In this document: piece by piece, positions 45,828 through 64,000 of the stretch
How positions within the stretch are numbered: position 1 is the first letter of the stretch
Layout of the letters: each line of letters opens with the position of its first letter
NCBI GenBank assembly: GCA_965199675.1
Contig: CBDATI010000015.1
Coordinates: forward strand, 98,217 to 162,216
Source: Vicinamibacterales bacterium
GTDB taxonomy: Bacteria; Acidobacteriota; Vicinamibacteria; Vicinamibacterales; UBA8438
Direction: 5' to 3'
Length of the DNA stretch: 64,000 nucleotides
Translations under genes and position numbers: made by a program
Notes under the pieces: generated by a model
Told to the model about the DNA's origin: nothing
Databases searched by the model: none
The model's input: the letters and a program-made list of their open reading frames with translations, nothing else

Positions 45828-46472
45828 ATGATGCGTATGGGACCGGTTTTTGCGAGAGGTAGTTGCCGGGCGCTGAGCTGGGTGGTGCTGTTCGGCTGGA
45901 TGCTGGCGCTGGGGGGAGGTACGGTCGAGGCGCAGTCACTAAAGGTGTACGTCGCGGAAGGCGACGGAACGCTGACGGTGTTTTGGGCCGGGGGTCCCGG
46001 CGACACGGTCGGATACCGGATCAAAGGCGTGGTACCCGATGACTTGAAGGAGGATCGCGGTTCGAACGAGGCGGCTGGCGCAGGCATGGTCAAGAGAACC
46101 ATCACTGGCTTGACCAACGGCGCCGTATACGTCGTGCGGGTAACGTCGGGGGCGACCTTTGGCACGATAACGGGAAGTCCAGGTAGGGCAACCGAAGACC
46201 CCAACTTCGGAGCGAGATATACGCCAGGCGACAAGCAACTGATGGTATCCTGGCCATCCAAGGCAGGCGCGATGGGTTACCTCGTTCAATACCGGGGGAA
46301 AACCGAAGTTGACCTGATGGACCACGCCATCGTCCCCGCGGGCATGACTGAGACCACCATCATGGGCTTGATCAACGCCGCGACATATGTCGTGCGGGTG
46401 ACGGCGCTGGTGGGGGGGAAAGACTCTCCGGAAGCAGATGTGTTTGGCGTAATTCCTGTTGCGAGGCCCTAT
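45828..46472 (+). pseudogene. 5' fragment of surface-protein paralog C, cut by IS5/IS1182-like copy 1
   Basis: MMRMGPVFARGSCRALSWVVLFGWMLALGGGTVEAQ signal matches paralog A. The FN3-like body is ~85% identical by eye to paralog B up to ..FGVIPVARP, where the IS inverted repeat begins. Confidence 0.75.
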
Positions 46473-47972
46473 CAGCCCGTGGAAAAAGTCGGCAAATTCG
46501 GGCCGATCGGGTCGATCTGAGTGGTTGTAGTGTCGTAGACTTCACAGCATGGCGATGGGCAAGAGGCCGGCGGCTCGACCGGCGCCACCGATGTGGGTGA
46601 CGGCAGAGGACCTTCCCAAGAGTGCGGGGCATCCCTTCTTCGAGCGGCTGAATCGGATTCTGGAGAAATCCAGGTTCGACGCTTTCGTGGAGGGGTTGTG
46701 TGCGGTCTTCTACGCGGAGCGAATGGGTCGTCCGAGTCTGCGACCCGGGCGGTATTTCCGGCTTCTGTTCATCGGGTATTTCGAGGGTCTGTCATCGGAG
46801 CGCGCGATTGCGTGGCGGGTCGCGGATTCGCTGAGCCTGCGGGCTTTCCTGGATCTGGACGTGACGGAGGCGACGCCGAACCACTCGACGCTGTCACGGA
46901 CTCGGCGTCTGATCGACGTGGAGACGCACGCGGCGGTGTTCACGTGGGTGCTGGAGCGGTTGTCGGAAGCGGGTCTGGTGAAGGGGAAGACGATCGGGGT
47001 GGACGCGACGACGCTGGAAGCGAACGCGGCGATGCGGAGCATCGAGCGTCGGGATACGGGGGACTCGTACGACGCGTTCGTGCGGGGGCTGGCGGAGGCA
47101 TCTGGCATTGCGACGCCGACGCGGGCGGAGTTGGCGCGTTTCGACCGTTCGCGGAAGGGCCGGAAGACGTCGAATGAAGAGTGGACGTCTCCGCAGGACC
47201 CGGACGCGAAGATCGCGAAGATGAAGGACGGTCGGACGCATCTGGCCCACAAGGCGGAGCACGGTGTCGACCTGGAGACGGGAGCGCTCCTGTCGGTGAC
47301 GGTTCAGGACGCGTCGGAGGGTGATACGGCGACGCTGCCGGAGACGCTGACGAAGGCGGCGGAGCAGGTGGAGGCGGTTCAGCCTGACGGTGAGGGCGTC
47401 GAAGAGGTGGTGGCCGACAAGGGGTATCACAGCGACGCGACGCTGGTGGCGCTCGACGACCTTGGTGTACGCAGCTACATCGCGGAGCCGGCGCGTGGTC
47501 GGCGCGTCTGGCAGGACAAGAAGACGGGTGAGACGCCGCCGGAGAAGCGTGCTGCGCAGTCGGCGCTGTATGGGAATCGTCGGCGTATTCGCGGGGACCG
47601 GGGCCGTCGTCTCCAACGCTGCCGGGGGGAACTGGTGGAGCGGCCTTTCGCTCACCAGTATGAGACCGGGGGTCTGCGTCGGGTGTGGGTGCGCGGCCAT
47701 GAGAATGTCCGCAAGCGGGTGCTGGTCCAGGCGGCGGGCTGCAACCTGGGTCTGTTGCTGCGCCGCCTGACGGGCGTCGGTACGCCCCGGAGCCTGCAGG
47801 GGCGGGCTCTTTCGGCGATTCTCGGGCTGATCGAACGCCTCATGGGCCTCTGGGGGCGTCTGAACGGCCTCTGGAGGGCCAAATGGGCTCCGGTCGCCCC
47901 CTGGGGCTCAGCCGCTCGTCCCCAAGCTGCTTGAACAGGCCCGCTCAGCGAACCGACTTCGTCCACGGGCTG
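46473..47972 (+). mobile_element. IS5/IS1182-like element, copy 1 (1500 bp)
   Basis: Inverted repeats cagcccgtggaaaaagtcgg / cagcccgtggacgaagtcgg (reverse complement). The transposase is identical to copy 2. Flanks ctat / tcag do not match, so there is no TSD. Confidence 0.85.
46549..47934 (+). CDS. IS5/IS1182-family DDE transposase
   Basis: N-terminal InsH-like region (HPFFERLNRIL...GRPSLRPGRYFRLLFIGYFEGLSSER). DDE region (..GVDATTLEANA...VADKGYHS...RVLVQAAGCNL). Confidence 0.8.
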   Translation: MAMGKRPAARPAPPMWVTAEDLPKSAGHPFFERLNRILEKSRFDAFVEGLCAVFYAERMGRPSLRPGRYFRLLFIGYFEGLSSERAIAWRVADSLSLRAFLDLDVTEATPNHSTLSRTRRLIDVETHAAVFTWVLERLSEAGLVKGKTIGVDATTLEANAAMRSIERRDTGDSYDAFVRGLAEASGIATPTRAELARFDRSRKGRKTSNEEWTSPQDPDAKIAKMKDGRTHLAHKAEHGVDLETGALLSVTVQDASEGDTATLPETLTKAAEQVEAVQPDGEGVEEVVADKGYHSDATLVALDDLGVRSYIAEPARGRRVWQDKKTGETPPEKRAAQSALYGNRRRIRGDRGRRLQRCRGELVERPFAHQYETGGLRRVWVRGHENVRKRVLVQAAGCNLGLLLRRLTGVGTPRSLQGRALSAILGLIERLMGLWGRLNGLWRAKWAPVAPWGSAARPQAA

Positions 47973-47986
47973 TCAGGGTCGAATCG

Positions 47987-48217
47987 TCACTCGGAGTTAT
48001 CCAGGGGCGACCCGGCGACGGCGCGCTTCAGCAGGTGCAGGGCGTCGGGGCCGATCCCGGTAGCGGTCTCGATGGTGGGCCAGGGGACACCGGCGCGAAG
48101 CAGGTCTTCGACCATCTTCACCTGTGCCTCCTGGCGTCCCTCCTGACGCCCCTCTTGGCGTCCCTGCTGACGGCCCTCCTGGCGTCCCTGCTGGACGAGT
48201 TGTTCGGCGTAGTCCAT
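47987..48217 (-). CDS. Orphan duplicate of the Rpn C-terminal domain (76 aa)
   Basis: MDYAEQLVQQ(GRQx)5..AQVKMVEDLLRAGVPWPTIETATGIGPDALHLLKRAV. It starts at the same internal Met as in the full-length Rpn. Homology to the full gene ends near 48287, and upstream indels break the longer frame. Confidence 0.55.
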   Translation of the reverse strand: MDYAEQLVQQGRQEGRQQGRQEGRQEGRQEAQVKMVEDLLRAGVPWPTIETATGIGPDALHLLKRAVAGSPLDNSE

Positions 48218-48419
48218 TCGCGGCTCCTCCCCCGGAACCTCCCGGCGCAGGGCGGCAGCGAAGCGCCGCCAGTGATCGCCCGGGTGAGCAGGGGGCTTCT
48301 CTTGGGGGCCACCCGGGGCGCCGCCGCTCGGCCGAGTTCACTGCCGGCGCGTGCGCGCGTTGGGCCGGCGGCGAAGCGCGGCTTCGGTTCGCGCCCGGTT
48401 TCGGCTCAAGGGTCGATCG

Positions 48420-49451
48420 TCATTCGGAGTTGTCTGCCGGCGGTTGGGCGACGGCGCGCTTCAGCAGGTGCAGGGCGTCGGGGCCGATTCCGGTGGCGGT
48501 CTCGATGGTGGACCAGGGGACGCCGGCGCGAAGCAGGTCTTCGACCATCTTCACCTGTGCCTCCTGGCGTCCCTCCTGGCGTCCCTCCTGACGCCCCTCC
48601 TGACGCCCCTCCTGACGCCCCTGCTGGCGTCCCTCCTGACGCCCCTCCTGACGCCCCTGCTGGCGTCCCTCCTGACGCCCCTGCTGGACGAGTTGTTCGG
48701 CGTAGTCCATCGCGGCTCCTCCCGCCGGAACCTCCCGGCGCAGGGCGGCAGCGAAGCGCCGCCAGTGATCGCGGGTGAGCGTGGCATGCAAGTACACCAC
48801 GAACGGCAGCAGCCGGTCGATGTCGTCGGCCGCCGTTCTGGCGTTCAGATCCGCAAGCAGGCGAAGCGCCGAGCGGGTTGCGGACCAACTGTCGCGGAGC
48901 GCGGCCATCATCGTCAACTGCGCGATGCGTCCGCGCAGCGTTCCACGCACCTCGTCCGGGTCGATGGTCGTCTGGTCGATCAACACGTGCTCGAAGCGCG
49001 GACTCCAGCGCCAGTCGGGAGACACGTCGGCAAACAGGGTCGCGAACTCGGTCGGGTGCGGCCAGCCCGTCCGGCCCTGGAAGAACACCACCGGGAGAAT
49101 CGGCCGCAGCGTCCGGTCCGTCGGGCGCTGTTGGCGGTCGCGCGCCCAGATGCGGCAGCAGTACGTCAGCAGGCGCAGGCGCATCCACCGGTCGGGGGCC
49201 GACTGATGCTCGACGAGCACGTACAGCCACGCGGCGGCGCCGTTCTCCCGTTCGACGGCGAACAGCAGGTCGGATTCTCGTTCCCGGAGGTCGTCGTCGA
49301 CGAAGCGGCCGTCCTGTACCGCGAGGCTCGACCAGCGGAGAGCCTGGGTGACCTGTGCGGGCAGGTACGCCCGCAGGAGGGCGGCGGCGTCCCCCGGGTC
49401 GGAGAACACGGTGCGGAACAGGTGGTCGTGTGGTTGCGGCGTGTCGGTCAT
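48420..49451 (-). CDS. Rpn-family (YhgA-like, PD-(D/E)xK) recombination-promoting nuclease / putative transposase
   Basis: PHDHLFRTVFSDPGDAAALLRAYLP...ESDLLFAVE...VLVEHQS is the Rpn/Transposase_31 signature. C-terminal domain follows a (GRQx)10 linker. Confidence 0.8.
   Translation of the reverse strand: MTDTPQPHDHLFRTVFSDPGDAAALLRAYLPAQVTQALRWSSLAVQDGRFVDDDLRERESDLLFAVERENGAAAWLYVLVEHQSAPDRWMRLRLLTYCCRIWARDRQQRPTDRTLRPILPVVFFQGRTGWPHPTEFATLFADVSPDWRWSPRFEHVLIDQTTIDPDEVRGTLRGRIAQLTMMAALRDSWSATRSALRLLADLNARTAADDIDRLLPFVVYLHATLTRDHWRRFAAALRREVPAGGAAMDYAEQLVQQGRQEGRQQGRQEGRQEGRQQGRQEGRQEGRQEGRQEGRQEAQVKMVEDLLRAGVPWSTIETATGIGPDALHLLKRAVAQPPADNSE
48560..48686 (-). repeat. 12-bp tandem repeat (10 units) encoding GRQE/GRQQ; 5 units in the orphan copy (48127-48194)
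   Basis: Repeated cctcctggcgtc/cctcctgacgcc/cctgctggcgtc units, read directly from the sequence. Confidence 0.85.
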
Positions 49452-49994
49452 CCCGTCGTCGATTGATCATCGCACAGGCTGTCGTCGGCGGCCGCGGTCC
49501 GACCGATCAGCGCGCGTCGCGACGACCGGTAGCTGCCGAAGCCAAGGGTGCGCGACCGGCTGCGGATGACGAGGCGCCGGATCCAGCGGCGGCGCCGGAG
49601 GCTCGACGTGGGAGGTAGAGGGCCCGCCTGATCGCCGTAATCGCGGTCTCGTTTCATGACGTAGCAGCCCTTCCAACTCGTCGAGACTGTGGCTTCCTTT
49701 ACCGATATCGGTATGAGGCCCCGTCCGCGCAAGGACGGGAAGGTGGTGGAAGGTCGAGGCATCATTCCACGGCGGCTCCTGCGAAGCGCGATTGCTCCAT
49801 CGTTATGTACAATAGGGTTGCTATTGGCTCACCGTGTCACTTCTCCCCGATTCGCTTGAAGTCGGGTATGGAATGCGCGGATAGTCGGACCGTCCGGGGA
49901 AGTGAACTTTGTCGCGACAGGACGGTCGTCCTGTCGGTTGACGCCGCTCCCTCCGGCCGCTGCGAACCCACCAGAGATCCGATCAGAGCACCGC

Positions 49995-51179
49995 ATGAAG
50001 CCCCGCGGAAGACATCCCGAGAATGCCCTCTCGACCGAGTTCGTGCGCGACGTCGCCCGGACCGGTCGCTACTGCGACGGCCATGGCCTGTACCTCGACG
50101 TGCGGCCCTCCGGCCGCCGGAGCTGGGTGCAGCGCATCGCCATTTTCGGCCGCCGGCGTGAGATCGGCCTCGGCGGCTTCCCCCTCGTCTCGCTCGCCGA
50201 GGCCCGCGCCGAGGCCTTCGCCAACCGCAAGCTCGCCCGCGCCGGCGGCGATCCGCTTGCCGAAAAGCGCCGCGCCCGGAGCGTGTTGACCTTCGAGGCG
50301 GCGGCCGGGCGGGTGTGGAACCAGATGCGGCCGGGCTGGCGCAACCGGAAGTATGGCCGCGACTGGATGCTGGGCCTTGCCCGCCATACCTTCCCACGCC
50401 TGGGCCCGGTACCGGTGGCCCGCGTCACGAGCACCGACGTCATCGAGACCCTCGAGCCCATCTGGCACGCCCGGCCGGCGACGGCGCGGCGCGTGCGCCA
50501 GCGCATCAACGCGGTGATGGAGTGGGCGGTGGCGATGGAGTACAGGGCCGACAACCCGTGCGACCGCATCGGGCCCGCCCTGGGCCGTCAGCAGGACGTC
50601 GTGCAGCACATGCCGGCCCTGCCTCACGGCGAGGTCGCGGCGGCGGTCGCGGCCGTGCGGGCGGCGCGGGTGAGGCCGGTCGTGAAGCTGGCGTTCGAGT
50701 TTCTCGTGCTGACGGCGGCGCGGTCGGGCGAGGTGCGGGGGGCGCGGTGGGCCGAGATGAACCTGGCCCGCCGGGTGTGGACCGTACCCGCCACGCGCAT
50801 GAAGGCCAACCGCGACCACCGGGTGCCGCTGTGCGAGCGCGCCGTCGAGGTGCTCGGCGAGGCCCGCGGCCGCCGCGGCCTCCTCGTGTTCCCGACGGCG
50901 CAGGGCGGGCGGCTGAAGGACGAGGCCCTGTCGAGGCCGCTCAAGGACCTGGGCCTGTCGGCGGTGCCGCACGGTTTCCGATCGAGCTTCCGCGACTGGG
51001 CGGCCGAAGAGACCAACCACCCGCGCGAGGTCGTCGAGGCGGCCCTCGCCCACGCCGTGCGGAACTCGGTGGAGGCCGCGTACGCGCGGTCCGACCTGTT
51101 CGAGCGGCGCCGCCGGCTGATGGACGACTGGGGCAACTATCTCGGTGGCCGGCGCGAGCTCGTGATGACGTGCGCGTAG
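49995..51179 (+). CDS. P4-type tyrosine integrase (DUF4102 arm domain), int2
   Basis: MKPRGRHPENALSTEFVRDVARTGRYCDGHGLYLDVRPSGRRSWVQRI...HGFRSSFRDW...AAYARSD. Roughly 70% aa identity to int1 by eye. Confidence 0.85.
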   Translation: MKPRGRHPENALSTEFVRDVARTGRYCDGHGLYLDVRPSGRRSWVQRIAIFGRRREIGLGGFPLVSLAEARAEAFANRKLARAGGDPLAEKRRARSVLTFEAAAGRVWNQMRPGWRNRKYGRDWMLGLARHTFPRLGPVPVARVTSTDVIETLEPIWHARPATARRVRQRINAVMEWAVAMEYRADNPCDRIGPALGRQQDVVQHMPALPHGEVAAAVAAVRAARVRPVVKLAFEFLVLTAARSGEVRGARWAEMNLARRVWTVPATRMKANRDHRVPLCERAVEVLGEARGRRGLLVFPTAQGGRLKDEALSRPLKDLGLSAVPHGFRSSFRDWAAEETNHPREVVEAALAHAVRNSVEAAYARSDLFERRRRLMDDWGNYLGGRRELVMTCA

Positions 51180-51527
51180 ACCCGACCGCGCGGGCGGCCG
51201 AGAAATGCAGGCCGCGAGCCCATCGTACGCGCCGGCCCGCCAACGCTTCAGCACCGACACCAAGCACGCGTCACCGACACCAAGCACGCGTCGAGCAGAC
51301 TGGCTGACGCGGACTGCATGCGGCGGCTCGCCGGGCCGCCGGACCAGCGCAACGCCGACGAGTCGGTTGGCAGGGATATCCGCGTGGCGGCTCGCGCCAT
51401 CGCTTCCGGGATCGCCGAGCCCGTAACGTCAAGGGGCGGCTGCACCCCTGGCCATTGGGGAATGTCTGCGTCCGCAGGCCTCGCGCCGCACCCCGCGGTG
51501 AACGCCCGGGTCGACGACCGGCCCGTG

Positions 51528-51827
51528 CTACTGGTCGGGCTGCTCGGCTCCGGGCAGGACGACGCGCTCGATGGTGAGCAGGCGCTGATCGACCTTCGCG
51601 AAAGCGATCTCGACGTTGCGCAGCCGTTCGTCGATGCGGTCCATCCGGGTCTCGATGCGGTCCATCCGGGTCTCGATGCGGTCCATCCGGGTCTCGATGC
51701 GGTCCATCCTAGCGTTCAGTTCGGACCGTAGGTCATCGATGCGGGCGTTCACACCGGCGATCTGCGCCGATGTCAAGCCGGCGAGCACCACCACGGTGCC
51801 GATGATCCACTTCGTGTCGTTGCTCAT
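51528..51827 (-). CDS. Small membrane-anchored coiled-coil protein with RMDRIET heptad tandem repeats
   Basis: MSNDTKWIIGTVVVLAGLTSAQIAGVNARIDDLRSELNA(RMDRIET)x3 RMDRIDERLRNVEIAFAKVDQRLLTIERVVLPGAEQPDQ. Lies directly downstream of surface gene B, same strand. Confidence 0.6.
   Translation of the reverse strand: MSNDTKWIIGTVVVLAGLTSAQIAGVNARIDDLRSELNARMDRIETRMDRIETRMDRIETRMDRIDERLRNVEIAFAKVDQRLLTIERVVLPGAEQPDQ
51631..51710 (-). repeat. 21-bp tandem repeat x ~3.7 (tcgatgcggtccatccgggtc)
   Basis: Perfect copies start at 51631, 51652 and 51673, with a partial copy at 51694. Confidence 0.9.
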
Positions 51828-52018: not shown

Positions 52019-53997
52019 CAACAAGGGAGAGTTGCGAACGGGACCCCGCCGAACGCTACCGACGCAGGTAGCGGCGGTAGCCGCCGACGGCGAGGAACGC
52101 CGCCAGCAGAAGCTGCGCGATGATCGGCAGGGCCGGCACCGCGGCATCCCAGAGGTAGAGCTTCACTTCGCCCGTCACCTCCGCCGCCATGTCTTCCGCC
52201 ATGCCGTAGAGCGCCAGCTCTTCCGCCATGTTGTCCGCGTTCTCCATCATGCCGTCTTCCACCGCCATCACCATCGTCGTGCCGCTCATCTGGCCCGCAC
52301 GGATGACGATCGGGTCGGCGGTGAAGTCGTCGTCCCCGGCGCTGCTCATGGCCCGGTCACGCATCAGGTTCACCGTCACGGCTTCGGTGACCGCACGGTT
52401 CGCCGTCACCGTGAGCATCGCGCCCCGGCCCCCCTCGACGACGTTCATGTCTTCGGGGCCGGTCAGGGTCAGGGTCAGCGCTTCGACACCCACCTCGACC
52501 GGGAACATGATGCTCGCCTCGCGGGGATCCGTCTGATCGGCGATCTTCACGCCCGACGGCATGCTCGCGTGCGCGGTGATGGTGATGTCCGCCATCCCCA
52601 TGGCCTCGGCCATCACCGACACCATGCCGCCGCTGACCATCGTCGACGCCACCTGCTCGTCACTCGACATGACCGAGTACGACAGCGTCACGTTCGGCGC
52701 GGCGTTGAAGAGGGCACTGCCCATGATCTCGATCATCTCGCCATGGGTGAACATCATGTCGCTGCCCATGCCCGCTTCCTTCGCGGCGTAGACGGCGGCC
52801 TCGACCTCCGCCTGCGTCTTCGCCCACACCAGCTCCATCGTCTTGTCGCTGATGGTCAGCTCGGTCACCCCGGCCACGGTTTCCTTGTCGGCGCCGTGCC
52901 GCGTCTCCTTGCCGGCGAGCATGGCATCGATCACCAGCATCTCGCCGTCGTCGAGCACGTCGTCCTCCAGAGCCATGACCTTCACCATCATCGACTGCGT
53001 CCACGGACGCCGTCCGTTGTGCTCCGGGAACTCGACGGTAGCCGGCAACTGGTAGTCTCCCATCCCGGCCGTGGTGCCCGCCCCCATGGTCAACATCACG
53101 TCCACGGCTTCCGAGGTGTAGCGCCTCGTCTCCGGATCGATGGCGATGGTCTCCGGCGGATTCCGGTCGAGAGTCAGCTTCAGCTCGATCTCCTCCCCTT
53201 CTGCCACGCTGTCCATATTGGGCTCCACCGCGAGCAGCGGCAGCCTGTGGATGTCCAGCACGGTGATCTGATGGGAACCAACCGGAACCACGTCAAAGCC
53301 GCCCGACGCCAACGAGTCATCGTTCACCGACGCCTTCAGCTCGTACTCGTCGTCCATCCTGTTACCGTCGGACGCCGGCAGATGAACGGTGACGTTCGCC
53401 CGGTTGTTCGCCGGGTTCTGGCCACGATCGTCGGCAGTGCCTGCGTTCAACGTCAACGACGTGTCGCTCACCGAGATCATGGCCGAACTCACCGTCACGC
53501 CGTGGAGATCCACCATGTCCAACCGAACATCGAGCGGGAGGTCTCGTCTGTGAGGCATCGCCTCTATAGTGAATTCCACTTCCTCCGCGTTCTCGTAGAC
53601 CGTCGTCGGCCCCGACGACCTGCCTCTCTTCACGGTGACCGTCTGCTCCTCGTTGTCCTCGATGACGATCATCGGCGTGGTCAAGCTGACCGCGTCGTTG
53701 GCATGCAGGTCAATGTCGTTGCTGTGATTCGCATAGAGCATGAATCCGTCGTTTTCCGCTTCATTCTGGTCTTCAAGCACTCGGACAGCCAGCTTGCCCG
53801 TTGCGCTCTTGTGGTGCCGTATGCTGTCCGGAAAATCTGTGGATTTTGGTCTGTCGGGCAGCGTTATCCTCACTCTAGACCACAAATCGCCATCACGGTA
53901 GTCCCCATCTGGGAAGTCCACGTCCTGCTCGTCGTCGTACGGAGACAACCAATCCGCCAAAAGGTCGCGGTCATACCCGGTAACCACCTCGACGTAG

Positions 53998-55497
53998 CAG
54001 CCCGTGGAAAAAGTCGGCAAATTCGGGCCGATCGGGTCGATCTGAGTGGTTGTAGTGTCGTAGACTTCACAGCATGGCGATGGGCAAGAGGCCGGCGGCT
54101 CGACCGGCGCCACCGATGTGGGTGACGGCAGAGGACCTTCCCAAGAGTGCGGGGCATCCCTTCTTCGAGCGGCTGAATCGGATTCTGGAGAAATCCAGGT
54201 TCGACGCTTTCGTGGAGGGGTTGTGTGCGGTCTTCTACGCGGAGCGAATGGGTCGTCCGAGTCTGCGACCCGGGCGGTATTTCCGGCTTCTGTTCATCGG
54301 GTATTTCGAGGGTCTGTCATCGGAGCGCGCGATTGCGTGGCGGGTCGCGGATTCGCTGAGCCTGCGGGCTTTCCTGGATCTGGACGTGACGGAGGCGACG
54401 CCGAACCACTCGACGCTGTCACGGACTCGGCGTCTGATCGACGTGGAGACGCACGCGGCGGTGTTCACGTGGGTGCTGGAGCGGTTGTCGGAAGCGGGTC
54501 TGGTGAAGGGGAAGACGATCGGGGTGGACGCGACGACGCTGGAAGCGAACGCGGCGATGCGGAGCATCGAGCGTCGGGATACGGGGGACTCGTACGACGC
54601 GTTCGTGCGGGGGCTGGCGGAGGCATCTGGCATTGCGACGCCGACGCGGGCGGAGTTGGCGCGTTTCGACCGTTCGCGGAAGGGCCGGAAGACGTCGAAT
54701 GAAGAGTGGACGTCTCCGCAGGACCCGGACGCGAAGATCGCGAAGATGAAGGACGGTCGGACGCATCTGGCCCACAAGGCGGAGCACGGTGTCGACCTGG
54801 AGACGGGAGCGCTCCTGTCGGTGACGGTTCAGGACGCGTCGGAGGGTGATACGGCGACGCTGCCGGAGACGCTGACGAAGGCGGCGGAGCAGGTGGAGGC
54901 GGTTCAGCCTGACGGTGAGGGCGTCGAAGAGGTGGTGGCCGACAAGGGGTATCACAGCGACGCGACGCTGGTGGCGCTCGACGACCTTGGTGTACGCAGC
55001 TACATCGCGGAGCCGGCGCGTGGTCGGCGCGTCTGGCAGGACAAGAAGACGGGTGAGACGCCGCCGGAGAAGCGTGCTGCGCAGTCGGCGCTGTATGGGA
55101 ATCGTCGGCGTATTCGCGGGGACCGGGGCCGTCGTCTCCAACGCTGCCGGGGGGAACTGGTGGAGCGGCCTTTCGCTCACCAGTATGAGACCGGGGGTCT
55201 GCGTCGGGTGTGGGTGCGCGGCCATGAGAATGTCCGCAAGCGGGTGCTGGTCCAGGCGGCGGGCTGCAACCTGGGTCTGTTGCTGCGCCGCCTGACGGGC
55301 GTCGGTACGCCCCGGAGCCTGCAGGGGCGGGCTCTTTCGGCGATTCTCGGGCTGATCGAACGCCTCATGGGCCTCTGGGGGCGTCTGAACGGCCTCTGGA
55401 GGGCCAAATGGGCTCCGGTCGCCCCCTGGGGCTCAGCCGCTCGTCCCCAAGCTGCTTGAACAGGCCCGCTCAGCGAACCGACTTCGTCCACGGGCTG
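53998..55497 (+). mobile_element. IS5/IS1182-like element, copy 2 (1500 bp) with 4-bp TSD GTAG
   Basis: Same inverted repeats as copy 1. gtag occurs at 53994-53997 and 55498-55501. Confidence 0.9.
54074..55459 (+). CDS. IS5/IS1182-family DDE transposase (identical to 46549..47934)
   Basis: The 461-aa translation is identical to copy 1. Confidence 0.85.
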   Translation: MAMGKRPAARPAPPMWVTAEDLPKSAGHPFFERLNRILEKSRFDAFVEGLCAVFYAERMGRPSLRPGRYFRLLFIGYFEGLSSERAIAWRVADSLSLRAFLDLDVTEATPNHSTLSRTRRLIDVETHAAVFTWVLERLSEAGLVKGKTIGVDATTLEANAAMRSIERRDTGDSYDAFVRGLAEASGIATPTRAELARFDRSRKGRKTSNEEWTSPQDPDAKIAKMKDGRTHLAHKAEHGVDLETGALLSVTVQDASEGDTATLPETLTKAAEQVEAVQPDGEGVEEVVADKGYHSDATLVALDDLGVRSYIAEPARGRRVWQDKKTGETPPEKRAAQSALYGNRRRIRGDRGRRLQRCRGELVERPFAHQYETGGLRRVWVRGHENVRKRVLVQAAGCNLGLLLRRLTGVGTPRSLQGRALSAILGLIERLMGLWGRLNGLWRAKWAPVAPWGSAARPQAA

Positions 55498-56438
55498 GTA
55501 GGCATGCGTTTTGCCCTGGTTGTGAAGCTGGGTGAGCTCCAAGTGGTCCCACTGCACTTCGATCTCCAAACGGAGATCCAGCTCGCCCTCGGCCACGTGG
55601 ATGCGTGGGATCCCTCCAATCGTCTTCTTCTGAATATTGCCCATCACCTCCATTCTGGTGATCTGACCCTTCAGATCCGGACCGGCCATGGTGGTGCCTT
55701 CGCCGGTCATGGACCACGGCGACTTGCCGCTGCTGTTCTGAGCACGGACCTGGACTTCGTACGTCATGCCACTGGCCAAATCCGTGAGGGTTGTGGATGT
55801 TCCAACCACAGCCGTGGACAGCACAGTCCAATTCGAACTACCCTTGGCTCGGAACCGCAATTCATAGTCGATGATGGCGCCACCATTGTCGTTCGGCGCC
55901 TCCCACATCACATCCAGCGACATCGTCGTGCCGGCCGTAGCTGTGACTGTCGGCACCGCAGGTGCATCGGGCACGCCCGGATCTGCAGTGGGCCTCGCAA
56001 CAGGAATTACGCCAAACACATCCGCCTCGGGAGAATCATTGTCTCCCATCAACGCCGTCACCCGCACGACATATGTTGCGTCGTTGACCAAGCCCATCAT
56101 GATGGTGGTCTCAGTCATGCCCGCGGGGACGATGGTGTGGTCCATCAGGCTATTTTGGGTTTTCCCTCGGTATTGAACGAGGTAACCCATCGCACCCGCT
56201 TTGGACGGCCAGGACACCATCAATTTCTTGTCGCCTGGCGTATATCTCGCCCCGAAGTTGGGGTCTTCGGTTGCCCCACCTGGACTTCCCGTTATCGAAT
56301 TAACACGGGTTCCCGATACCGAGTCCTCTATCCGCACGACGTATACGGCGCCGTTGACCAAGCCACTGATGGTCGTCTTGAAGCCGGAGTCAAAGGTCTC
56401 GATGGGACCCACATTGGTACTAACCAGCGACGAGCTAG

Positions 56439-56813
56439 CAGCCCGTGGAAAAAGTCGGCAAATTCGGGCCGATCGGGTCGATCTGAGTGGTTGTAGTGTC
56501 GTAGACTTCACAGCATGGCGATGGGCAAGAGGCCGGCGGCTCGACCGGCGCCACCGATGTGGGTGACGGCAGAGGACCTTCCCAAGAGTGCGGGGCATCC
56601 CTTCTTCGAGCGGCTGAATCGGATTCTGGAGAAATCCAGGTTCGACGCTTTCGTGGAGGGGTTGTGTGCGGTCTTCTACGCGGAGCGAATGGGTCGTCCG
56701 AGTCTGCGACCCGGGCGGTATTTCCGGCTTCTGTTCATCGGGTATTTCGAGGGTCTGTCATCGGAGCGCGCGATTGCGTGGCGGGTCGCGGATTCGCTGA
56801 GCCTGCGGGCTTT
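56439..56813 (+). mobile_element. IS5/IS1182-like element, copy 3, truncated after 375 bp
   Basis: Identical to copy 1 from the left inverted repeat (preceded by ctag) through ..gcctgcgggcttt. It then diverges (gggtgcggctcttc.. versus cctggatctgg..). Confidence 0.85.
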
Positions 56814-57041
56814 GGGTGCGGCTCTTCTGTGTAGAGAGCTAACTCACTGATTCATAGGCATTTGCGCTCCTGGGCTCTCTCGCCTCGGCACGCTTGGCGG
56901 AGGTACAGCATTTCCCACCCCCTTCCCGGACCCGCCAGACCCATGCGAGCCCACACCGGGCGCTCGGTCCCTCCTCTGCCGCGGCTCCCCCTGGACATTC
57001 GTCCGGCGTTCTGGTACGGTGTCCTGGAGGGACGTCCTGCG

Positions 57042-57932
57042 ATGGCCACCGCCACGACGAGGTTCTCGGGGCGCGCGTTCAGCGAGCGAGAGATGACGCT
57101 GGTCCGCGAGGTCGTGCGCGACTGTCCGGGCTTGAGCCGGATGGAGCTGGCGCGCACCGTGTGCGAGCTGTTGCGGTGGCGGCGCCCCAACGGACGGCTG
57201 AAGGCCCGCGAGTGCCGGGAGTTCCTGGAGCGGCTGGACGCGGACGGGGCGCTGGCCCTGCCCGGCAAGCGCCGGGGCCGTGCAGCGGGTTCGGTGACCC
57301 GGGTGCCCCGGACGGCGGCGGGCGAGCCAGGGTCCCGGCTCGTCGGCAGCGTGCGCGACATCGAGCCGCTGGCTGTCGAGCGGGTGCGCGAGCCCGCCCA
57401 GCGGTTGCTGTTCCGGGAGCTGGTGGGGCGCTACCACGACATCGGGCACCGGGTTCCGTTCGGGGCGCACCTGCGCTATCTGGTGTTCGCGTCGAGGCCG
57501 GCGCGGGCGGTGGTGGGGTGCCTGCAGTTCTCCAGCCCGGCGTGGCGGATGGCGGCGCGCGACCGCTGGGTGGGCTGGGACGACGCGACACGGGCGCGGA
57601 ATCTGCAGCACGTGGTCAACAACAGCCGCTTTCTGCTGCTGCCGTGGGTCGAGGTGAAGAACCTCGCGAGCGCGGTGCTGTCGCGCGGCCTCGTGCGCAT
57701 GGCGGCGGACTGGCCGCGCCGCTACGGCCTGTCGCCGTGGCTGGTGGAGACGCTGGTGGACCCCCGCCGCCACCACGGCGGGTGCTACCGCGCCGCCAAC
57801 TGGGTGGTGTTGGGGGCCACGAGCGGTCGCGGGCGCATGGACCGGTACGGGCGCCGCGGGGGTGAGGCGCCCAAGACGGTTCTGGTCTATCCTGTGGTTC
57901 GGGATGCGCAGCGGCGGCTGCGGGAGCGTTGA
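57042..57932 (+). CDS. DUF4338-domain protein (accessory ORF of ISKra4-type elements)
   Basis: GRYHDIGHRVPFGAHLRYLVF...CLQFSSPAWRMAARDRWVGW...NNSRFLLLPWV...GGCYRAANW is the pattern I recognise as DUF4338. Confidence 0.6.
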   Translation: MATATTRFSGRAFSEREMTLVREVVRDCPGLSRMELARTVCELLRWRRPNGRLKARECREFLERLDADGALALPGKRRGRAAGSVTRVPRTAAGEPGSRLVGSVRDIEPLAVERVREPAQRLLFRELVGRYHDIGHRVPFGAHLRYLVFASRPARAVVGCLQFSSPAWRMAARDRWVGWDDATRARNLQHVVNNSRFLLLPWVEVKNLASAVLSRGLVRMAADWPRRYGLSPWLVETLVDPRRHHGGCYRAANWVVLGATSGRGRMDRYGRRGGEAPKTVLVYPVVRDAQRRLRER

Positions 57933-57935
57933 GCC

Positions 57936-59552
57936 ATGCGCGTTGTTCCGCCCCGTGCCGCTCCACCCGCCCCGACGCCGTATGCGACGGCGGAGGCGGT
58001 CTTCTCGGAGACCAAGACCTACCTCTCTTCGCGCGAGGCCCAGCAGATGAGTGAGAGCGACCTCGAACGGGAGCTGCACCGGCGGGGCCAGGACTTGATG
58101 CGCAAGCTCCTGCAGGGACACCTCGACCAACGCAGTCCGGGGGAGGCGGCGGGGCCGGTCGAGGGGGCCGACGGCGTCGAGCGTTCGGAGCGCCGCGTGC
58201 ACGAACGCGCCGTGGAGACGATCTTCGGCACGGTGGATGTCGAGCGTGCGGGCTACGCGCGGGCTGGCCACGACAGTCTGCATCCGCTCGATGGGTCGCT
58301 GAACCTGCCGGCGGAGCGTTACTCGCTGGAGGTACGCCGGCGGGTGGCGGAGGCGGCGGCCTCGCGGTCGTTCGACGAAGCGCTGTCGGACCTGTCCCGC
58401 CATACCGGGGCGAAGGTGCCGAAGCGTCAGGCGGAGCAGTTGGCGGCTCGCGCGGCGGAGGACTTCGACGCGTTCTACGAGGCGCGCCGTGCGGCGGCGG
58501 GAGAAGCGGTGCCCGCGGAGTCGGTGGTCGTGCTGACCTTCGACAGCAAGGGGGTGGTGCTGCATCGGGAGGACCTGCGGGAGGCGACGCGCAAGGCGGC
58601 CGAGCGGCGCCGTCGGCAACGGGGGCAGCTCTCGCCGTTCAATCGCCTCAAGCCGGGGGAGAAGAAGCACTCGAAGCGGATGGCGACGGTGGCCGCCGTC
58701 TATGCGGTCGCGCCGTTCGTGCGGAGCGCGGAGGATTTCCTGCAGAGCCTGATGCCCCGACAGCCGGCGGCCAAGACGAAGAAGGGCAGGAAGGCGAAGA
58801 CCTCGGGGGTGCGGCCTCGCCCGGTGGCGAAACGGGTGTGGGCGAGCCTCGAACGGGAGCCCGTGGAGGTGATCGCCGAGGCGTTCCTGGAAGCGGACCG
58901 CCACGACCCCGAACGCGTCAAGCACTGGGTGGTGCTCGTCGACGGGGCCGAGACGCAGCTCGACCTCGTGGAAGAGGGCGCCGCCGCGTACGGCGTGGCG
59001 GTCACGGTGGTCCTCGACATCATCCACGCGGTCGAGTATGTGTGGAAGGCGGCGCATGCGTTCCACCGGGAGGAGAGCCCCGAGTTGGCGTGCTGGGCGT
59101 GGACTCGCGTGCGGGACATTCTCGAGGGCAGGGCCAAGCGGGTCGCGGCGTCGATGCGGCGTGCAGCGACCGTCGCCGGGTTGTCGAAGGACGCCCGCAA
59201 GCCGGTCGACACGTGCGCCGACTACCTGCTGAAGTACGCGCCGTATATGCATTACGACCGCTACCTCGCGGCCGGCTACCCCATCGCCACCGGGGTCATC
59301 GAAGGGGCGTGCCGGCACCTAGTGCGCGACCGCATGGAGTTGACCGGCGCGCGCTGGCGGCTGGTCGGCGCCGAGGCGATTCTGAAGCTCCGGGCGCTGC
59401 GCGCCAGCGGCGACTTCGATGCGTACTGGGACTTCCACGAAGCGCGCGAGTACGAGCGGAATCACGCCCAGCGATACCGTGACGGCGCAGTCCCGCCGGT
59501 CACCGAGCCGCCCCCGCCCCCCGCCTCACCCCGCCTTCGACGCGTCAAGTAG
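57936..59552 (+). CDS. ISKra4-family transposase
   Basis: ..WVVLVDGAETQLDL...VLDIIHAVEYVWKAAHAF...YPIATGVIEGACRHLVRDRMELTGARW..GAEAILKLRALRASGDFDAYW. Confidence 0.65.
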   Translation: MRVVPPRAAPPAPTPYATAEAVFSETKTYLSSREAQQMSESDLERELHRRGQDLMRKLLQGHLDQRSPGEAAGPVEGADGVERSERRVHERAVETIFGTVDVERAGYARAGHDSLHPLDGSLNLPAERYSLEVRRRVAEAAASRSFDEALSDLSRHTGAKVPKRQAEQLAARAAEDFDAFYEARRAAAGEAVPAESVVVLTFDSKGVVLHREDLREATRKAAERRRRQRGQLSPFNRLKPGEKKHSKRMATVAAVYAVAPFVRSAEDFLQSLMPRQPAAKTKKGRKAKTSGVRPRPVAKRVWASLEREPVEVIAEAFLEADRHDPERVKHWVVLVDGAETQLDLVEEGAAAYGVAVTVVLDIIHAVEYVWKAAHAFHREESPELACWAWTRVRDILEGRAKRVAASMRRAATVAGLSKDARKPVDTCADYLLKYAPYMHYDRYLAAGYPIATGVIEGACRHLVRDRMELTGARWRLVGAEAILKLRALRASGDFDAYWDFHEAREYERNHAQRYRDGAVPPVTEPPPPPASPRLRRVK

Positions 59553-59763
59553 CTCTGATCTGGCCGCCGTGCAGAATCCAATGGACTCTCTCTGGGCCGC
59601 CGACGAAAAAGAGCCCGGCGTGTCCGCGATCCTGCGCCTCAAGCTGTCGCCCCTGGATCCGGTGCCTGACATGATCGTCTCCGCAGGCGAAGAAATCACG
59701 CCGATAACCCTGCCCGAGGCTCTCGGCGGCCTCGGCATGGAGACCCAATACAGCACGACCGCC

Positions 59764-61536
59764 GTATTCGGTTACCGGGTCGGGGCGAGAAGATCCCCGA
59801 AAATGTGTGCAGGCGTGGAGGCCTTGTGCCGATACGTGAGACATGGCGCGCAAGAAGGGCGACCAGGACGAGTCGGACCGGACGGGGCGTCAGCGAGACC
59901 CTCGCGACCTGCGCATCGAGCGCCTGAAGCAGGACAAGGCGAAGCTGATCGAGGAACGCGACCACTGGAAGCGCCGCAGCGAGCAGCTGGAAAAGGAGCT
60001 CGAGACCGCTCGGCGAGCCGGCAAGCGGCAGGCGGCCCCCTTCGCCAAGGACCGGCGGCAGGGAAGCGGCGAGCGGCCGGGGCGGCGGCGTGGTGCGGAC
60101 TACGGGAAGCAGGGGCGGCGCCAGCCGCCCCCACGCGTCGACGAGGTCCACGCGGCGCCGGTCCCGACGAGTTGTCCCGACTGCGGCGGCGCGGTCACCG
60201 TGGACGGTGTGTCGTCGCAGTATCAGGAAGAGCTGCCGGCGGTTCAGGCCCTGGTGCGGCGGTTCGACATCGAGGTGGGCCGCTGCGTCCAGTGTCGGCG
60301 GCGAGTGCAGGGCCGGCACGCGCTGCAGACCTCGGACGCCTTGGGCGCCGCCGCTCCCCAACTGGGTCCGAACGTCGCCGCGCTGGTGGTCGAGTTGCAC
60401 ACCGAGCTGGGCATGCCGGTGGAGAAGGTCGCCCGCGTGCTGAACATTCAGTTCGGACTCCGGGTCACCAAGGGCGGTCTGGTCCAACTGCTGCACCGCA
60501 CCGCCGCCAAGGCGGCGCTGGCGTATGCGGCGCTGTGCGAGCAGGTCCGCCGCAGCCCGGTGGTCACGCCGGACGAGACGGGGTGGCGTGTGTGTACGCT
60601 CAACCACTGGCTGTGGGTATTCGCGACCCCGGAGACCACGGTCTACGCGATCTGCGCCGGGCGGGGGTTCGAGCATGCGGCGGCGGTTCTCGGCCCCGAT
60701 TTCTCCGGCGTGCTGGTGCGGGACGGTTGGGTGGCCTATCGCGGCTTCAAGCATGCGCCGCACCAGACGTGCGTGGGTCATCTCTTGCGCCGCTGCAAGG
60801 ATCTGCAGGCCGCTCACCCCGACAGCCCCTGGGCCGGCGAGGTGCAGGCGGTCCTTCAGGACGGTCTCGCGCTGCGCGACCGCTGCAATGCGGGCGACAT
60901 CAGCGAGCACGGTCTGGCAACGGCCCGCGGCCGACTGGTCGCCCGGCTCGGTCGCCTGATCGACACCGCGCCGCCGTTGGCCGCCGCCGAGCGCTTCGCC
61001 AAGCACTTGGCCAACGAGTTCCCGGCGGTGTTCGTCTTCCTGTGCGACCCGTCGATAGACGCGACCAACTGGCGGGCGGAGCAGGCCATCCGTCCCGCGG
61101 TGGTCACCCGCAAGGTGTGCGGCGGCAACCGCACCCGCAAGGGTGCCAACACCCAGCAGGTGCTGGCGAGCGTGGTGCGTACCGCCCGCCAACGCCGACT
61201 CGACCCCCGCGTGCTGTTCACGACGATGCTGTGCGCCCGCGCACCCGTCGTGCCCGAAGCGCTTGCGCTGCCGCCACCCGCCTGACCGCCGGTGGGCCCT
61301 CCCGACGGGTCCCGGGTCCGCCGCCATCACACCGCGCCGGCCGCCGCACGCCTCGCACGCGACCTCCTGGGGCGCCTCCCACGACGAAGACCGATGGCCC
61401 TTCGCGGCATTGGCCCGCCAATCCGACAATCTTGCGTCAGGCACGTCTCGCCGCTGCCGTAACTTTCCGGAGCACAGGTCCATTGTCAGTTACATTTTCA
61501 TGGGCGAAACCGTTCCCGGACGCGCTAACCGAATAC
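59764..61536 (+). mobile_element. IS66-family element (1773 bp) with 8-bp TSD CGACCGCC
   Basis: Inverted repeats gtattcggttaccgggtcgggg / gtattcggttagcgcgtccggg (reverse complement). cgaccgcc occurs at 59756-59763 and 61537-61544. Confidence 0.85.
59843..61285 (+). CDS. IS66-family transposase
   Basis: N-terminal coiled coil. Zn-finger CPDCGG...CVQCRR. DDE core ..VVTPDETGWRV...LVRDGWVAYRG...ATNWRAEQAIRPAVVTRKVCGGNR. Confidence 0.8.
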   Translation: MARKKGDQDESDRTGRQRDPRDLRIERLKQDKAKLIEERDHWKRRSEQLEKELETARRAGKRQAAPFAKDRRQGSGERPGRRRGADYGKQGRRQPPPRVDEVHAAPVPTSCPDCGGAVTVDGVSSQYQEELPAVQALVRRFDIEVGRCVQCRRRVQGRHALQTSDALGAAAPQLGPNVAALVVELHTELGMPVEKVARVLNIQFGLRVTKGGLVQLLHRTAAKAALAYAALCEQVRRSPVVTPDETGWRVCTLNHWLWVFATPETTVYAICAGRGFEHAAAVLGPDFSGVLVRDGWVAYRGFKHAPHQTCVGHLLRRCKDLQAAHPDSPWAGEVQAVLQDGLALRDRCNAGDISEHGLATARGRLVARLGRLIDTAPPLAAAERFAKHLANEFPAVFVFLCDPSIDATNWRAEQAIRPAVVTRKVCGGNRTRKGANTQQVLASVVRTARQRRLDPRVLFTTMLCARAPVVPEALALPPPA

Positions 61537-62311
61537 CGACCGCCTTGCCCGCGGGCCTGATGTTCGAGGCGGATGATATGAAGGATACTTGGCGTATGCT
61601 CACTGGAACGCCGACCATGCCGATTGACCAGGGCGGCGTATCTGTGACCTATTCCGCGGCAGATGGCACGGGGATGCCTCAATCGGAGACTTTTCGAATC
61701 ACGGTGCAGTACATGCCGGACATGCCGGATGCGCCTACGGTGACTCCGAACACAACGTCCGGAGACCTGGACGTGTCTTGGGATATGCCGGCCGACAACA
61801 ACGACCCCATCATCTACTATCAGGTGCAGCACCGAATGATGGGTGAAACCGCGTGGTCCGTGCCCCCGGTGAACGCCACGATGGGGACCTCATACACCTT
61901 CACGGATCTGACCGACGGCGAGACGTACGAATTTCAGGTGCGCGCCGTGAACAGCCTCGGCATGTCCGATTGGTCCGCTACTGGCTCCGGTATCGACCCG
62001 GCGGACCCTCCGGTCGCTCCGACACTGAGGGGCCAGATCACCAGGATGGAGATCAAGGGCAATTTTGAGGAGAAGACAATCGGAGGCGACACGCGGATCC
62101 ACGTGGAAGAGGGTGAATTGGATCTCAGCGTGGAGCTGGAAGTTAGTTGGACACACAAGGAGCTCACCGAGCTTCACGCCCAGAACACGAAGTATGTTTT
62201 TGTCGACATATATGCAGGATGGTCGTCGGCCGCTGGCGTAACCTTGCCGGATTGGGTGTCCTGGCTCGACTACGAACAGGACGTGGACTTTCCGGACACG
62301 AGATATGGAGG

Positions 62312-63761
62312 GGGGATGTCCCGGAGGCTGTTGAACTGAGTTGAAGCGGGTGGCGACTCCTCGTCCCTGTCTGTGGTAGGACAGGGGTGCAATCAACAGG
62401 AGGAGAGCCACCCATGGCGAAGCATGACAGGCGGAGGCGTTCGAGCCAACCCCCGAGTTCACGGGCTGCGACGATTCAGGTACCGCTGCCGGTGCTCGGC
62501 GTGCTGGAGGGAGTCCGGGAAGCCTTCCACGGCTTGTGCATCACGACCGGGATGCAGGTTCTGCAGGCGATGATGGAGGGGGACCGAGAAGACCTGTGCG
62601 GCCCGAAGGGGCGCCATCAGGAGGAGCGGTCCGCGTGGCGCGGCGGCAGCGCGGCGAGCCAGGTAACGCTTGGCGGCCGGCAGGTGGGGGTGCCGCGGCT
62701 GCGGGTGCGCAGCGCCGACGGCGAGGTGGAGCTGCCGAGCTTCCGCTGGGCGTCGGCGACCGACCCGCTGGACGAGCACACGCTGTCTGCGGTCGCGGCC
62801 GGGGTATCGACGCGGCGGTATGCGGACACGTTGGACCCGGCGCCGGCCGAGGTGATGGAGCGGGGCACGTCGAGCAGTGCGGTGTCTCGGCGTTTCGTGG
62901 CGCTGTCGGCGAAGCGGCTGGGGGCGTTTCTGAGCCGTCCGTTGGGTGAGTTGGACCTGCGTGTGGTCTGCATCGACGGCAAGGTCTTCCGAGACCACAG
63001 CTTGGTGGTAGCGTTGGGCATCGATACGGAGGGTGGCAAACACGTGCTCGGTCTGCGCGAAGGCGCGACGGAGACGGCGGCGGTGGCCACGGGGCTGTTG
63101 AGCGACCTGGTGACGCGGGGCGTGCCGACGGACCGGACGTTGCTGTTCGTCGTCGACGGGGCGGCTGGGCTGCGGCGAGCCATCAGCGACGTGTTCGGTT
63201 CCCGCGGGGTGGTGCAGCGCTGCCAGGTGCACAAGCTCCGCAACGTGCTGGGCCATCTGCCCGAGCGGCTGCACGCTTCGGTGGGCAAGGCGTTGCGGGA
63301 TGCCTGGGACATGGATTCCGCGGACCGGGCGGGGCGGGTGCTGAAGCGTTTGGCGAGGTCGCTGGAACGCGACCACCCTGGCGCGGCGGCGTCCATCCGG
63401 GAGGGCCTCGAGGAAACGCTGACGGTGCAGCGGCTCGGTCTGACGGGGGCCCTCGAACGTACTCTGCGGACGACGAACATCATCGAGAACCTGATGGGGA
63501 GCGTCGAGAGCTACACGCGGCGGGTCAAACGGTGGCGCGGCGGCCAGATGATTCAGCGTTGGGTGGCGAGCGCGCTGGTGGAGGCGGCACCGCGCTTTCG
63601 GCGGGTGCGCGGCTACCGCGACCTGCGCCATCTGGTCGGCGGGCTCGACGCGCTGGCCCCGCCCGACGGCGCGGTTGCTGACGTGGCGTAGAATAGACGA
63701 CTTCGGAGCGGAAACAGGGAGTCCGCCACTCGCAAAGTTCAACAACGAACGGGACAATCCC
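62312..63761 (+). mobile_element. IS256-family element (1450 bp) with 8-bp TSD TATGGAGG
   Basis: Inverted repeats ggggatgtcccggaggctgttgaact / gggattgtcccgttcgttgttgaact (reverse complement). tatggagg occurs at 62304-62311 and 63762-63769. Confidence 0.85.
62414..63691 (+). CDS. IS256-family (Transposase_mut) transposase
   Basis: AGGAGAG SD. ..VVCIDGKVF...VVALGIDTEGGKHVLG...LFVVDGAAGLRRAI...QRCQVHKLRNVL...RTTNIIENL. Confidence 0.85.
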   Translation: MAKHDRRRRSSQPPSSRAATIQVPLPVLGVLEGVREAFHGLCITTGMQVLQAMMEGDREDLCGPKGRHQEERSAWRGGSAASQVTLGGRQVGVPRLRVRSADGEVELPSFRWASATDPLDEHTLSAVAAGVSTRRYADTLDPAPAEVMERGTSSSAVSRRFVALSAKRLGAFLSRPLGELDLRVVCIDGKVFRDHSLVVALGIDTEGGKHVLGLREGATETAAVATGLLSDLVTRGVPTDRTLLFVVDGAAGLRRAISDVFGSRGVVQRCQVHKLRNVLGHLPERLHASVGKALRDAWDMDSADRAGRVLKRLARSLERDHPGAAASIREGLEETLTVQRLGLTGALERTLRTTNIIENLMGSVESYTRRVKRWRGGQMIQRWVASALVEAAPRFRRVRGYRDLRHLVGGLDALAPPDGAVADVA

Positions 63762-63813
63762 TATGGAGGCGGACGCTATGCCAGTGGACGCACGTGGGCC
63801 CGGATGCGCATAG

Positions 63814-64000
63814 CAGCCCGTGGAAAAAGTCGGTAAATTCGGGCCGATCGGGTCGATCTGAGTGGTTGTAGTGTCGTAGACTTCACAGCATGGCGATGGG
63901 CAAGAGGCCGGCGGCTCGACCGGCGCCACCGATGTGGGTGACGGCAGAGGACCTTCCCAAGAGTGCGGGGCATCCCTTCTTCGAGCGGCTGAATCGGATT
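63814..64000 (+). mobile_element. IS5/IS1182-like element, copy 4 (left end only; runs off the window)
   Basis: Same left inverted repeat with one mismatch (gtcggtaaattc), preceded by atag. The transposase ATG at 63890 has the same 76-nt offset as in other copies. Confidence 0.85.
63890..64000 (+). CDS. IS5/IS1182-family transposase, 5' part only
   Basis: MAMGKRPAARPAPPMWVTAEDLPKSAGHPFFERLNRI is identical to the other copies. Confidence 0.8.
   Translation, partial: MAMGKRPAARPAPPMWVTAEDLPKSAGHPFFERLNRI

Follow-up and report, generated by a model that had tools for sequence, protein, structure and literature searches.

The last 18 kb of a 64,000-nt stretch of contig C15 from a Vicinamibacterales bacterium (C15:98217-162216, hereafter the window) harbor a cluster of insertion sequences (IS) that has broken up three related genes, here called A, B and D. 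We consider it likely, with a probability of about 0.8, that this cluster is a genuine IS nest resulting from a recent burst across the whole genome that involved at least five IS families, whose copies piled up in dispensable, island-borne genes of low G+C content (GC) located near integrases. The affected genes are predicted to be paralogs coding for a surface protein that is exported, contains FN3 domains and is anchored at its C-terminus. Genes B and D are split by three cut-and-paste insertions that display canonical target-site duplications (TSDs), namely those of an IS5/IS1182-like element (4 bp), an IS66 element (8 bp) and an IS256 element (8 bp), and an element of the ISKra4 family has inserted into another copy of the IS5/IS1182-like element, such that one IS lies within another.

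A first-pass annotation of the region had singled out these three insertions as simple ones, and their TSDs were found exactly where it had placed them: GTAG on both sides of copy 2 of the IS5/IS1182-like element (c2, the four copies in the window being designated c1 to c4), CGACCGCC at 59756-59763 and 61537-61544 around the IS66 element, and TATGGAGG at 62304-62311 and 63762-63769 around the IS256 element. When c2 and one GTAG were removed in silico, the minus strand was open over 958 codons, from the border of c3 to the stop codon at 52056-52058, and removal of the IS66 and IS256 elements left the plus strand open over 319 codons, from 59616 to 63813. The proposal that excision restores the frames of B and D is therefore borne out, but both genes remain incomplete, with the 5' end of B absent and D reduced to an internal piece. 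The strongest and independent confirmation of the IS66 and IS256 insertions is provided by a paralog on contig C22, whose segment C22:91971-92929 matches the joined pieces of D at 100% identity and contains CGACCGCC and TATGGAGG once each, the empty sites being located at 92111-92118 for IS66 and at 92878-92885 for IS256.

Gene D corresponds to a 959-nt internal piece, which covers residues 166-485 of the C22-encoded protein of 1079 aa. Because c3 abuts it, gene B has lost its 5' end, and comparison with gene A indicates that its start, its signal peptide and approximately 85 codons are missing; no copy of this missing end was found in the assembly. The 3' part of gene B shares 79% amino acid identity with residues 432-1072 of the intact C22 paralog. 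No intact allele of B was found among public proteins, the read-through product matching at 100% only the fragment of the window itself and the next best matches being 53-60% identical; its weak FN3 matches bear the names of metagenome-assembled genomes (MAGs) of sponge symbionts, including Candidatus Poriferisodalis. Gene A and the first part of gene B share 86% nucleotide identity at their 5' ends. That A and B represent the two halves of one gene was ruled out by their 433-nt overlap at this level of identity, and the same possibility was discarded for D and B, as the FN3 region is present in both. A, B and D are dead fragments. The coordinates of these and of the other features are collected in Table 1.

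Table 1. Genes, gene fragments and IS elements of the nest and its surroundings (positions in the window; c1 to c4, copies of the IS5/IS1182-like element).
Feature	Position	Strand	Remarks
IS630-family element (transposase 36816-37904)	36791..37966	-	NCBIfam transpos_IS630 276 bits vs 100; ends CTAGTGTCC...GGACACTAG
Tyrosine (phage-type) integrase	44426..45640	-	Pfam Arm-DNA-bind_3, Phage_int_M, Phage_integrase; divergent from gene A
Gene A, 5' fragment (215 codons)	45828..46472	+	Signal-peptide-like N-terminus and FN3 (Pfam fn3); ends at left end of c1
c1, full length	46473..47972	+	Flanks CTAT/TCAG, no TSD
Second tyrosine integrase	49902..51179	+	Pfam matches
Gene B, 3' part	52056..53997	-	Tail LWDAAVPALP, hydrophobic helix, RRYLRR, stop (52056-52058)
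c2, simple insertion	53998..55497	+	4-bp TSD GTAG at 53994-53997 and 55498-55501
Gene B, 5' part	55498..56438	-	FN3 domains (Pfam fn3 2e-23); ends at left end of c3, flank CTAG
c3, nt 1-375 only	56439..56813	+	Cut by ISKra4
ISKra4-family element (transposase 57936-59552)	56814..59615	+	NCBIfam transpos_ISKra4 343 bits vs 205
Gene D, piece 1	59616..59763	+	100% identical to C22:91971-92118
IS66-family element (single ORF 59843-61285)	59764..61536	+	Pfam DDE_Tnp_IS66 1.6e-35; NCBIfam transpos_IS66 234 bits vs 180
Gene D, piece 2	61537..62311	+	He_PIG and FN3 domains; 100% identical to C22:92111-92885
IS256-family element (transposase 62387-63691)	62312..63761	+	Pfam Transposase_mut 1.6e-35; NCBIfam 213 bits vs 150
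Gene D, piece 3	63762..63813	+	100% identical to C22:92878-92929; ends ATAG at left end of c4
c4	63814..64000	+	Continues to the end of C15; 596 nt assembled

Other junctions of the nest are not simple, as had been recognized at first pass: c3 is interrupted at nt 375 by the ISKra4 element, and the far end of the latter abuts gene D. Eight of the nine other full-length ISKra4 copies of the genome end in ...GAGCCACACCC, i.e., with a terminal ACACCC, and all seven complete internal copies, which are 2808 bp long and have inverted repeats (IRs) GGGTG(C/T)GGCTCTT, are flanked by 9-bp TSDs (here and below, TSD statistics refer to complete copies away from contig ends). The copy in the window has neither its last 6 bp (ACACCC) nor a TSD, and it stops at ...GAGCC, from where it runs directly into gene D without microhomology; it is a truncated member of its family. 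With neither the ACACCC terminus nor a 9-bp TSD, the joint between ISKra4 and gene D was ruled out as a normal insertion and is a deletion scar rather than a transposition joint. Three of the ten ISKra4 copies lie inside IS1182-like copies, which account for only about 1.4% of the genome (window 56814-59615, C2:16591-19398 and C45:501-3302), and two of the three nested copies, those of the window and of C45, are without the terminal ACACCC.

The left-most copy of the IS5/IS1182-like element, c1, is identical to c2 over 1500/1500 nt, and it marks a rearrangement or a deletion because it has no TSD. Its right flank consists of unrelated DNA, namely the 3' end of a minus-strand open reading frame (ORF) together with a partial duplicate of that ORF, and the continuation of gene A was found nowhere in the assembly. 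Pairing the flanks of TSD-less IS copies genome-wide, for instance CTAT of c1 with the right flank of C63:149505, yielded 4-bp matches that are expected by chance, and these flanks contained no continuation of gene A. The leader and the 5' end of gene A have a 99.8% identical second copy on contig C52 (locus L002, 410-2500), which is cut by an identical IS1182-like element. This cut is located 106 nt upstream of that in the gene A of the window, likewise without a TSD, and the homology between the two loci stops at window position 45773, upstream of the start of gene A.

The family assignments of the IS in the nest, and that of the IS630 element approximately 7.9 kb upstream of it, were all confirmed by self-comparison of the window and by Pfam and NCBIfam searches, with the reservation that the IS5/IS1182-like transposase remains under the NCBIfam cut-offs (177 bits vs 270 for IS1182, and 103 vs 140 for IS5_4). 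Self-comparison, which the first-pass annotation had proposed as a check on the IS ends and TSDs, confirmed both, and it delimited the IS5/IS1182-like element as a 1500-bp sequence with IRs CAGCCCGTGGA(A/C)(A/G)AAGTCGG. As its transposase matches Pfam DUF772 and DDE_Tnp_1 above their cut-offs, the element falls within the IS5/IS1182 superfamily, its family being ambiguous. A 4-bp TSD is present in 28 of its 38 complete internal copies and absent from the other ten; 15 of the 28 are CTAG, CTAA, TTAG or TTAA, and the element thus displays the short TSD with YTAR-like preference that is used to recognize the IS5 group. In its exact form the element is confined to the present genome, its nearest relative being 93% identical, and related elements are multi-copy in many congeneric genomes.

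The IS66 element of 1773 bp has a single ORF for a 480-aa transposase and no canonical accessory tnpA and tnpB ORFs, a layout that fits the single-ORF (ISBst12-like) subgroup of IS66. Its IRs, GTATTCGGTTA..., fit the GTA-start IRs of the family, and 8-bp TSDs were found in six of the eight complete internal copies of the genome. The IS256 element measures 1450 bp and is bounded by IRs GGGGATGTCCCG and GGGATTGTCCCG; its Mutator-type transposase, its 8-bp TSD, its imperfect IRs and its size agree with those of the IS256 family (TSDs of 8-9 bp, length of about 1.3-1.5 kb). The IS630 element, compared with the copies on C1 and C63, ends within CTAG in all three cases, and its target thus contains the TA expected for that family.

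Copies of these elements elsewhere in the genome were counted, as the first-pass annotation had also suggested. The five IS families comprise 117 copies or fragments for a total of 157 kb, of which 66 are IS1182-like, 17 IS256, 15 ISKra4, 13 IS66 and 6 IS630. There are 41 full-length IS1182-like copies, the majority of them 100% identical, and ISKra4, IS66 and IS256 are each multi-copy at 99-100% identity. Because so many copies are identical or nearly so, recent IS activity is supported, as had been surmised from the identical transposase copies of the window. With 5.7% of the genome repeated at ≥95% identity, and with the ten TSD-less IS1182-like copies, the near-identical copies, gene disruptions and rearrangements that characterize an IS expansion are all in evidence. 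The nest itself has a repeat fraction of 0.60, which corresponds to approximately the 99th percentile of 18-kb windows, and IS DNA accounts for 9.6 of the 18.2 kb between 45828 and 64000, as summed from the coordinates. Similar nests occur on C59, C34, C58, C37, C44, C2 and several small contigs, and that of the window is one of about eight comparably dense stretches in the genome.

The statement that every surface-protein paralog is disrupted holds within the window, but not genome-wide, as intact members of the family are found at C22:91477-94716 and at about C10:296586-301112. Six of approximately nine family loci are disrupted by IS, namely A, B, D, the C52 copy, a locus at C15:71.9-77.4 kb that carries two IS1182-like elements, and one at C10:303.7-307.2 kb that carries an IS256 element. 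A further paralog, at window positions 1863-3951, is frameshifted near 3290, outside any homopolymer, and represents a genuine pseudogene or else an indel of the assembly. Across the genus the family is large and clustered, with many paralogs per genome. In three relatives (G018, G015 and G002; loci L092-L095), short or frameshifted family fragments are found beside integrases that are 70-73% identical to those of the window, with none of the five transposases nearby; the presence of such IS-free decayed fragments next to integrases points to a fast turnover of the family genes with or without IS involvement. In another relative, identical family-gene matches at 15-26 kb and 6.74-6.77 Mb, near both ends of the single 6.8-Mb contig (G001:C1), suggest that the contig ends either carry a long duplication or overlap in the assembly.

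Whether the family is a special target was assessed against base composition. Relative to a uniform null, the concentration of insertions noted in the first-pass annotation is real, since the family, which covers 0.37% of the genome after IS masking, has eight usable sites against an expected 0.37 (P = 6e-9), but it is mostly gone once local GC is considered. The density of IS is 0.3-0.6 per kb where IS-masked GC, computed per 1 kb, is <0.60, versus 0.005 per kb at GC 0.70-0.72, a more than 100-fold fall; the trend is seen in all five families and is weakest in IS66. The 1-kb flanks of IS sites have a median GC of 0.649 versus 0.709 at random positions (Mann-Whitney P = 9e-24), a value as low as that being reached by 4% of random windows, and the GC of the family is 0.619 versus 70.8% for the genome. 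Conditioned on GC, 4.9 family sites are expected versus the eight observed (P = 0.12), and with the family excluded from the rate estimate, the expectation is ~4.2 (P ~0.06, by hand calculation from the GC bins). Because the excess thereby falls from ~20-fold to ~2-fold, the concentration is for the most part a feature of the low-GC accessory compartment, and the family is no special target beyond being low-GC DNA that adjoins integrases. The YTAR 4-mers, which are very rare in this genome (1127 in all), are 3.3-fold denser in the family (0.70 per kb) than genome-wide (0.21 per kb), which contributes to the excess but is insufficient alone.

Genes A and B are flanked by the two phage-type integrases, which are 76% identical to each other at the nucleotide level, and modules combining an integrase with family genes are found again on C10 and in relatives. 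The IS nest does not belong to such modules but overlies them. Between c1 and the second integrase, two overlapping ORFs (48406-49470, minus strand; 48351-49466, plus strand) had no match to families of Pfam or NCBIfam at E 0.01 when both strands were scanned, and the segment 47973-49470 contains 12-nt tandem repeats and a partial duplication, in that 47975-48289 resembles 48409-48780. The assembly comprises 5.32 Mb in 63 contigs with 70.8% GC, and the 5.3-Mb genome compares with 6.3-7.3 Mb in the majority of complete congeneric genomes; C15 terminates 409 nt past the end of the window, within c4. Over an 869-residue stretch, RpoB shares 97-98% identity with MAG proteins labelled Vicinamibacterales bacterium (e.g., OZ242323.1 and OZ244051.1), indicating that the source organism is an uncultured member of the Vicinamibacterales (Acidobacteriota). 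Segmental duplicates with 98-99% identity were found between C34:9258-26902 and C51:1-14095, where about 3.5 kb including an IS1182-like copy are present in C34 and absent from C51, and further pairs involve C44/C59, C58/C59 and C35/C37; these pairs represent mobile DNA in several copies or, alternatively, strains that were binned together.

A plausible history of the nest would begin with the insertion of ISKra4 into c3 at nt 375, to be followed by a deletion. An illegitimate deletion might have taken 6 bp of ISKra4, the remainder of c3 and the upstream portion, as far as the middle, of a gene copy identical to that of C22, which would have created the joint between ISKra4 and gene D. Gene A may have lost its 3' two-thirds, and c1 its TSD, through recombination between two direct IS1182-like copies or a comparable IS-mediated deletion, which are the usual causes of such a copy. 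Several of the elements would favor A+T-richer targets, the IS5-like one using 4-mers of the YTAR type, and the insertions would persist as the paralogs are redundant and each of them can be dispensed with. Additional insertions into an already broken gene would be free of cost, and the nest would grow.

A number of observations weigh against this account of a genuine nest left by a recent burst. The genome is probably a MAG, because its nearest RpoB matches all come from MAGs, and it contains 97-99% identical segmental duplicates that differ in the presence or absence of IS, such as those of C34 and C51, on account of which some structures may stem from co-existing strains. Junctions that run through identical repeats of 1.5-2.8 kb, chiefly those on both sides of c1, are known from the assembly alone. 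The seven IS elements of the nest (46473-64000) are co-oriented, all transposases being on the plus strand, an arrangement with a two-sided chance of ~0.016. Finally, the ~2-fold family excess that is left after GC conditioning has a P value of 0.06-0.12, and GC is confounded with dispensability, which makes tolerance and target preference inseparable in these data. Strain mixing or the mis-joining of repeats would account for part of the nest: the D fragment and c1 would then reflect an assembly path through identical IS copies, and D would represent a variant, within the population, of the locus on C22 and not a second copy. The 100% identity of D to C22 over 959 nt without any flank of its own, the end of C15 inside c4 and the ten of 38 complete internal IS1182-like copies that lack a TSD are also compatible with such an origin. 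We nevertheless hold it to be unlikely, since mis-joins cannot yield perfect TSDs together with restored frames. Because the joint between ISKra4 and D is located 6 bp inside the IS, its sequence is unique and must occur in the reads, and the reads must have been much longer than the repeats, given that 41 full-length copies of 1.5 kb and ten copies of 2.8 kb are assembled within contigs. Moreover, D as a variant of C22 would need four IS events in 959 nt, with the flanks of C22 absent.

The residual excess might also be taken as a trace of selection. In a symbiont population, IS insertion and deletion could constitute a recurrent, selected switch-off or variation of island-borne surface proteins, e.g., for evasion of phages or hosts, with the intact C22 gene and D as two states that are kept together; we regard this non-neutral reading as quite unlikely. 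Adaptive loss proper, in which insertions are favored as the loss or variation of exposed proteins helps to escape phage adsorption or host recognition, seems less likely still. It could explain why six of about nine family loci are disrupted by IS and one more is frameshifted, why five unrelated IS families are involved, and why gene A and its nearly identical C52 copy were each cut by an IS1182-like element, 106 nt apart. However, the ~2-fold excess is not significant, two full-length paralogs remain intact, the family decays without IS in relatives, and the data available here are sequences rather than measurements of fitness, expression or the use of the proteins by phages. That one or several elements recognize a motif or a DNA structure peculiar to the family is highly improbable. 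The IS5-like element does use YTAR-like 4-mers, which are denser in the family, and the TSDs of ISKra4, three of whose ten copies sit in IS1182-like copies, end in A/T-rich triplets. In contrast, four families with differing TSD lengths and unrelated targets have all struck the gene family, its sites (GTAG, CTAG, ATAG, CTAT, CCAA, CGACCGCC, TATGGAGG and CATGAATT) share no common motif, the majority of the copies of each IS family are located elsewhere, and a 3.3-fold motif density is too small for a 20-fold excess.

Under the reading of a recent burst that accumulated in low-GC accessory DNA, the region offers a clean, reconstructable case of IS eroding redundant surface-protein genes in an uncultured acidobacterium. 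The exact ends, TSDs and target preferences of five unnamed IS elements should be useful for annotation, and an apparently 'targeted' gene family is largely explained by base composition and accessory status. For studies of the surface-protein family itself, A, B and D are to be treated as dead fragments, the full-length copies being those of C22 (91477-94716) and C10 (~296586-301112).

Expansion of IS, accompanied by pseudogenes and deletions, is well known in bacteria that have recently become host- or niche-restricted, including Shigella, Bordetella pertussis with IS481, Burkholderia mallei with IS407A, Yersinia pestis and Sodalis. The present genome resembles them in that a few IS families are present in many identical copies, split genes show clean TSDs, an appreciable minority of the copies, marking recombination or deletion, have no TSD, and the genome is smaller than that of most congeners. 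Unlike in those bacteria, repeats make up only ~5.7% of the genome, and the insertions are nearly confined to the few percent of the genome with the lowest GC. A high transposase load has been described in sponge-associated symbionts (PMC11410982), and Vicinamibacterales of the family UBA8438 have been reported as sponge symbionts (PMC8941161). The organism studied here belongs to the same order by RpoB, and its genome is similarly rich in transposases and in FN3-type 'eukaryote-like' surface proteins. The host-associated genome decay put forward at first pass would be plausible.

The individual elements may likewise be compared with known families. In the ISfinder groupings, members of the IS5 group of the IS5 family duplicate 4 bp of the sequence YTAR, and the IS1182 family is related to them. 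The IS5/IS1182-like element shares with the IS5 group a DDE_Tnp_1 and DUF772 transposase, a length of 1.5 kb, IRs of ~20 bp and 4-bp TSDs that are mainly CTAG, CTAA, TTAG, TTAA and CTGA, but it differs from both families in that its transposase scores below both NCBIfam cut-offs and many TSDs depart from YTAR (CTGA, CCAG, GTAC and others). The IS66, IS256, ISKra4 and IS630 transposases all exceed their NCBIfam cut-offs, with TSDs of 8, 8 and 9 bp for the first three and ends in CTAG for IS630; unlike canonical IS66, the IS66 element is devoid of tnpA and tnpB, and unlike a complete ISKra4, the copy of the window is 6 bp short. The nest is the product of a well-known process, carried out by recognizable IS families, rather than a new kind of system.

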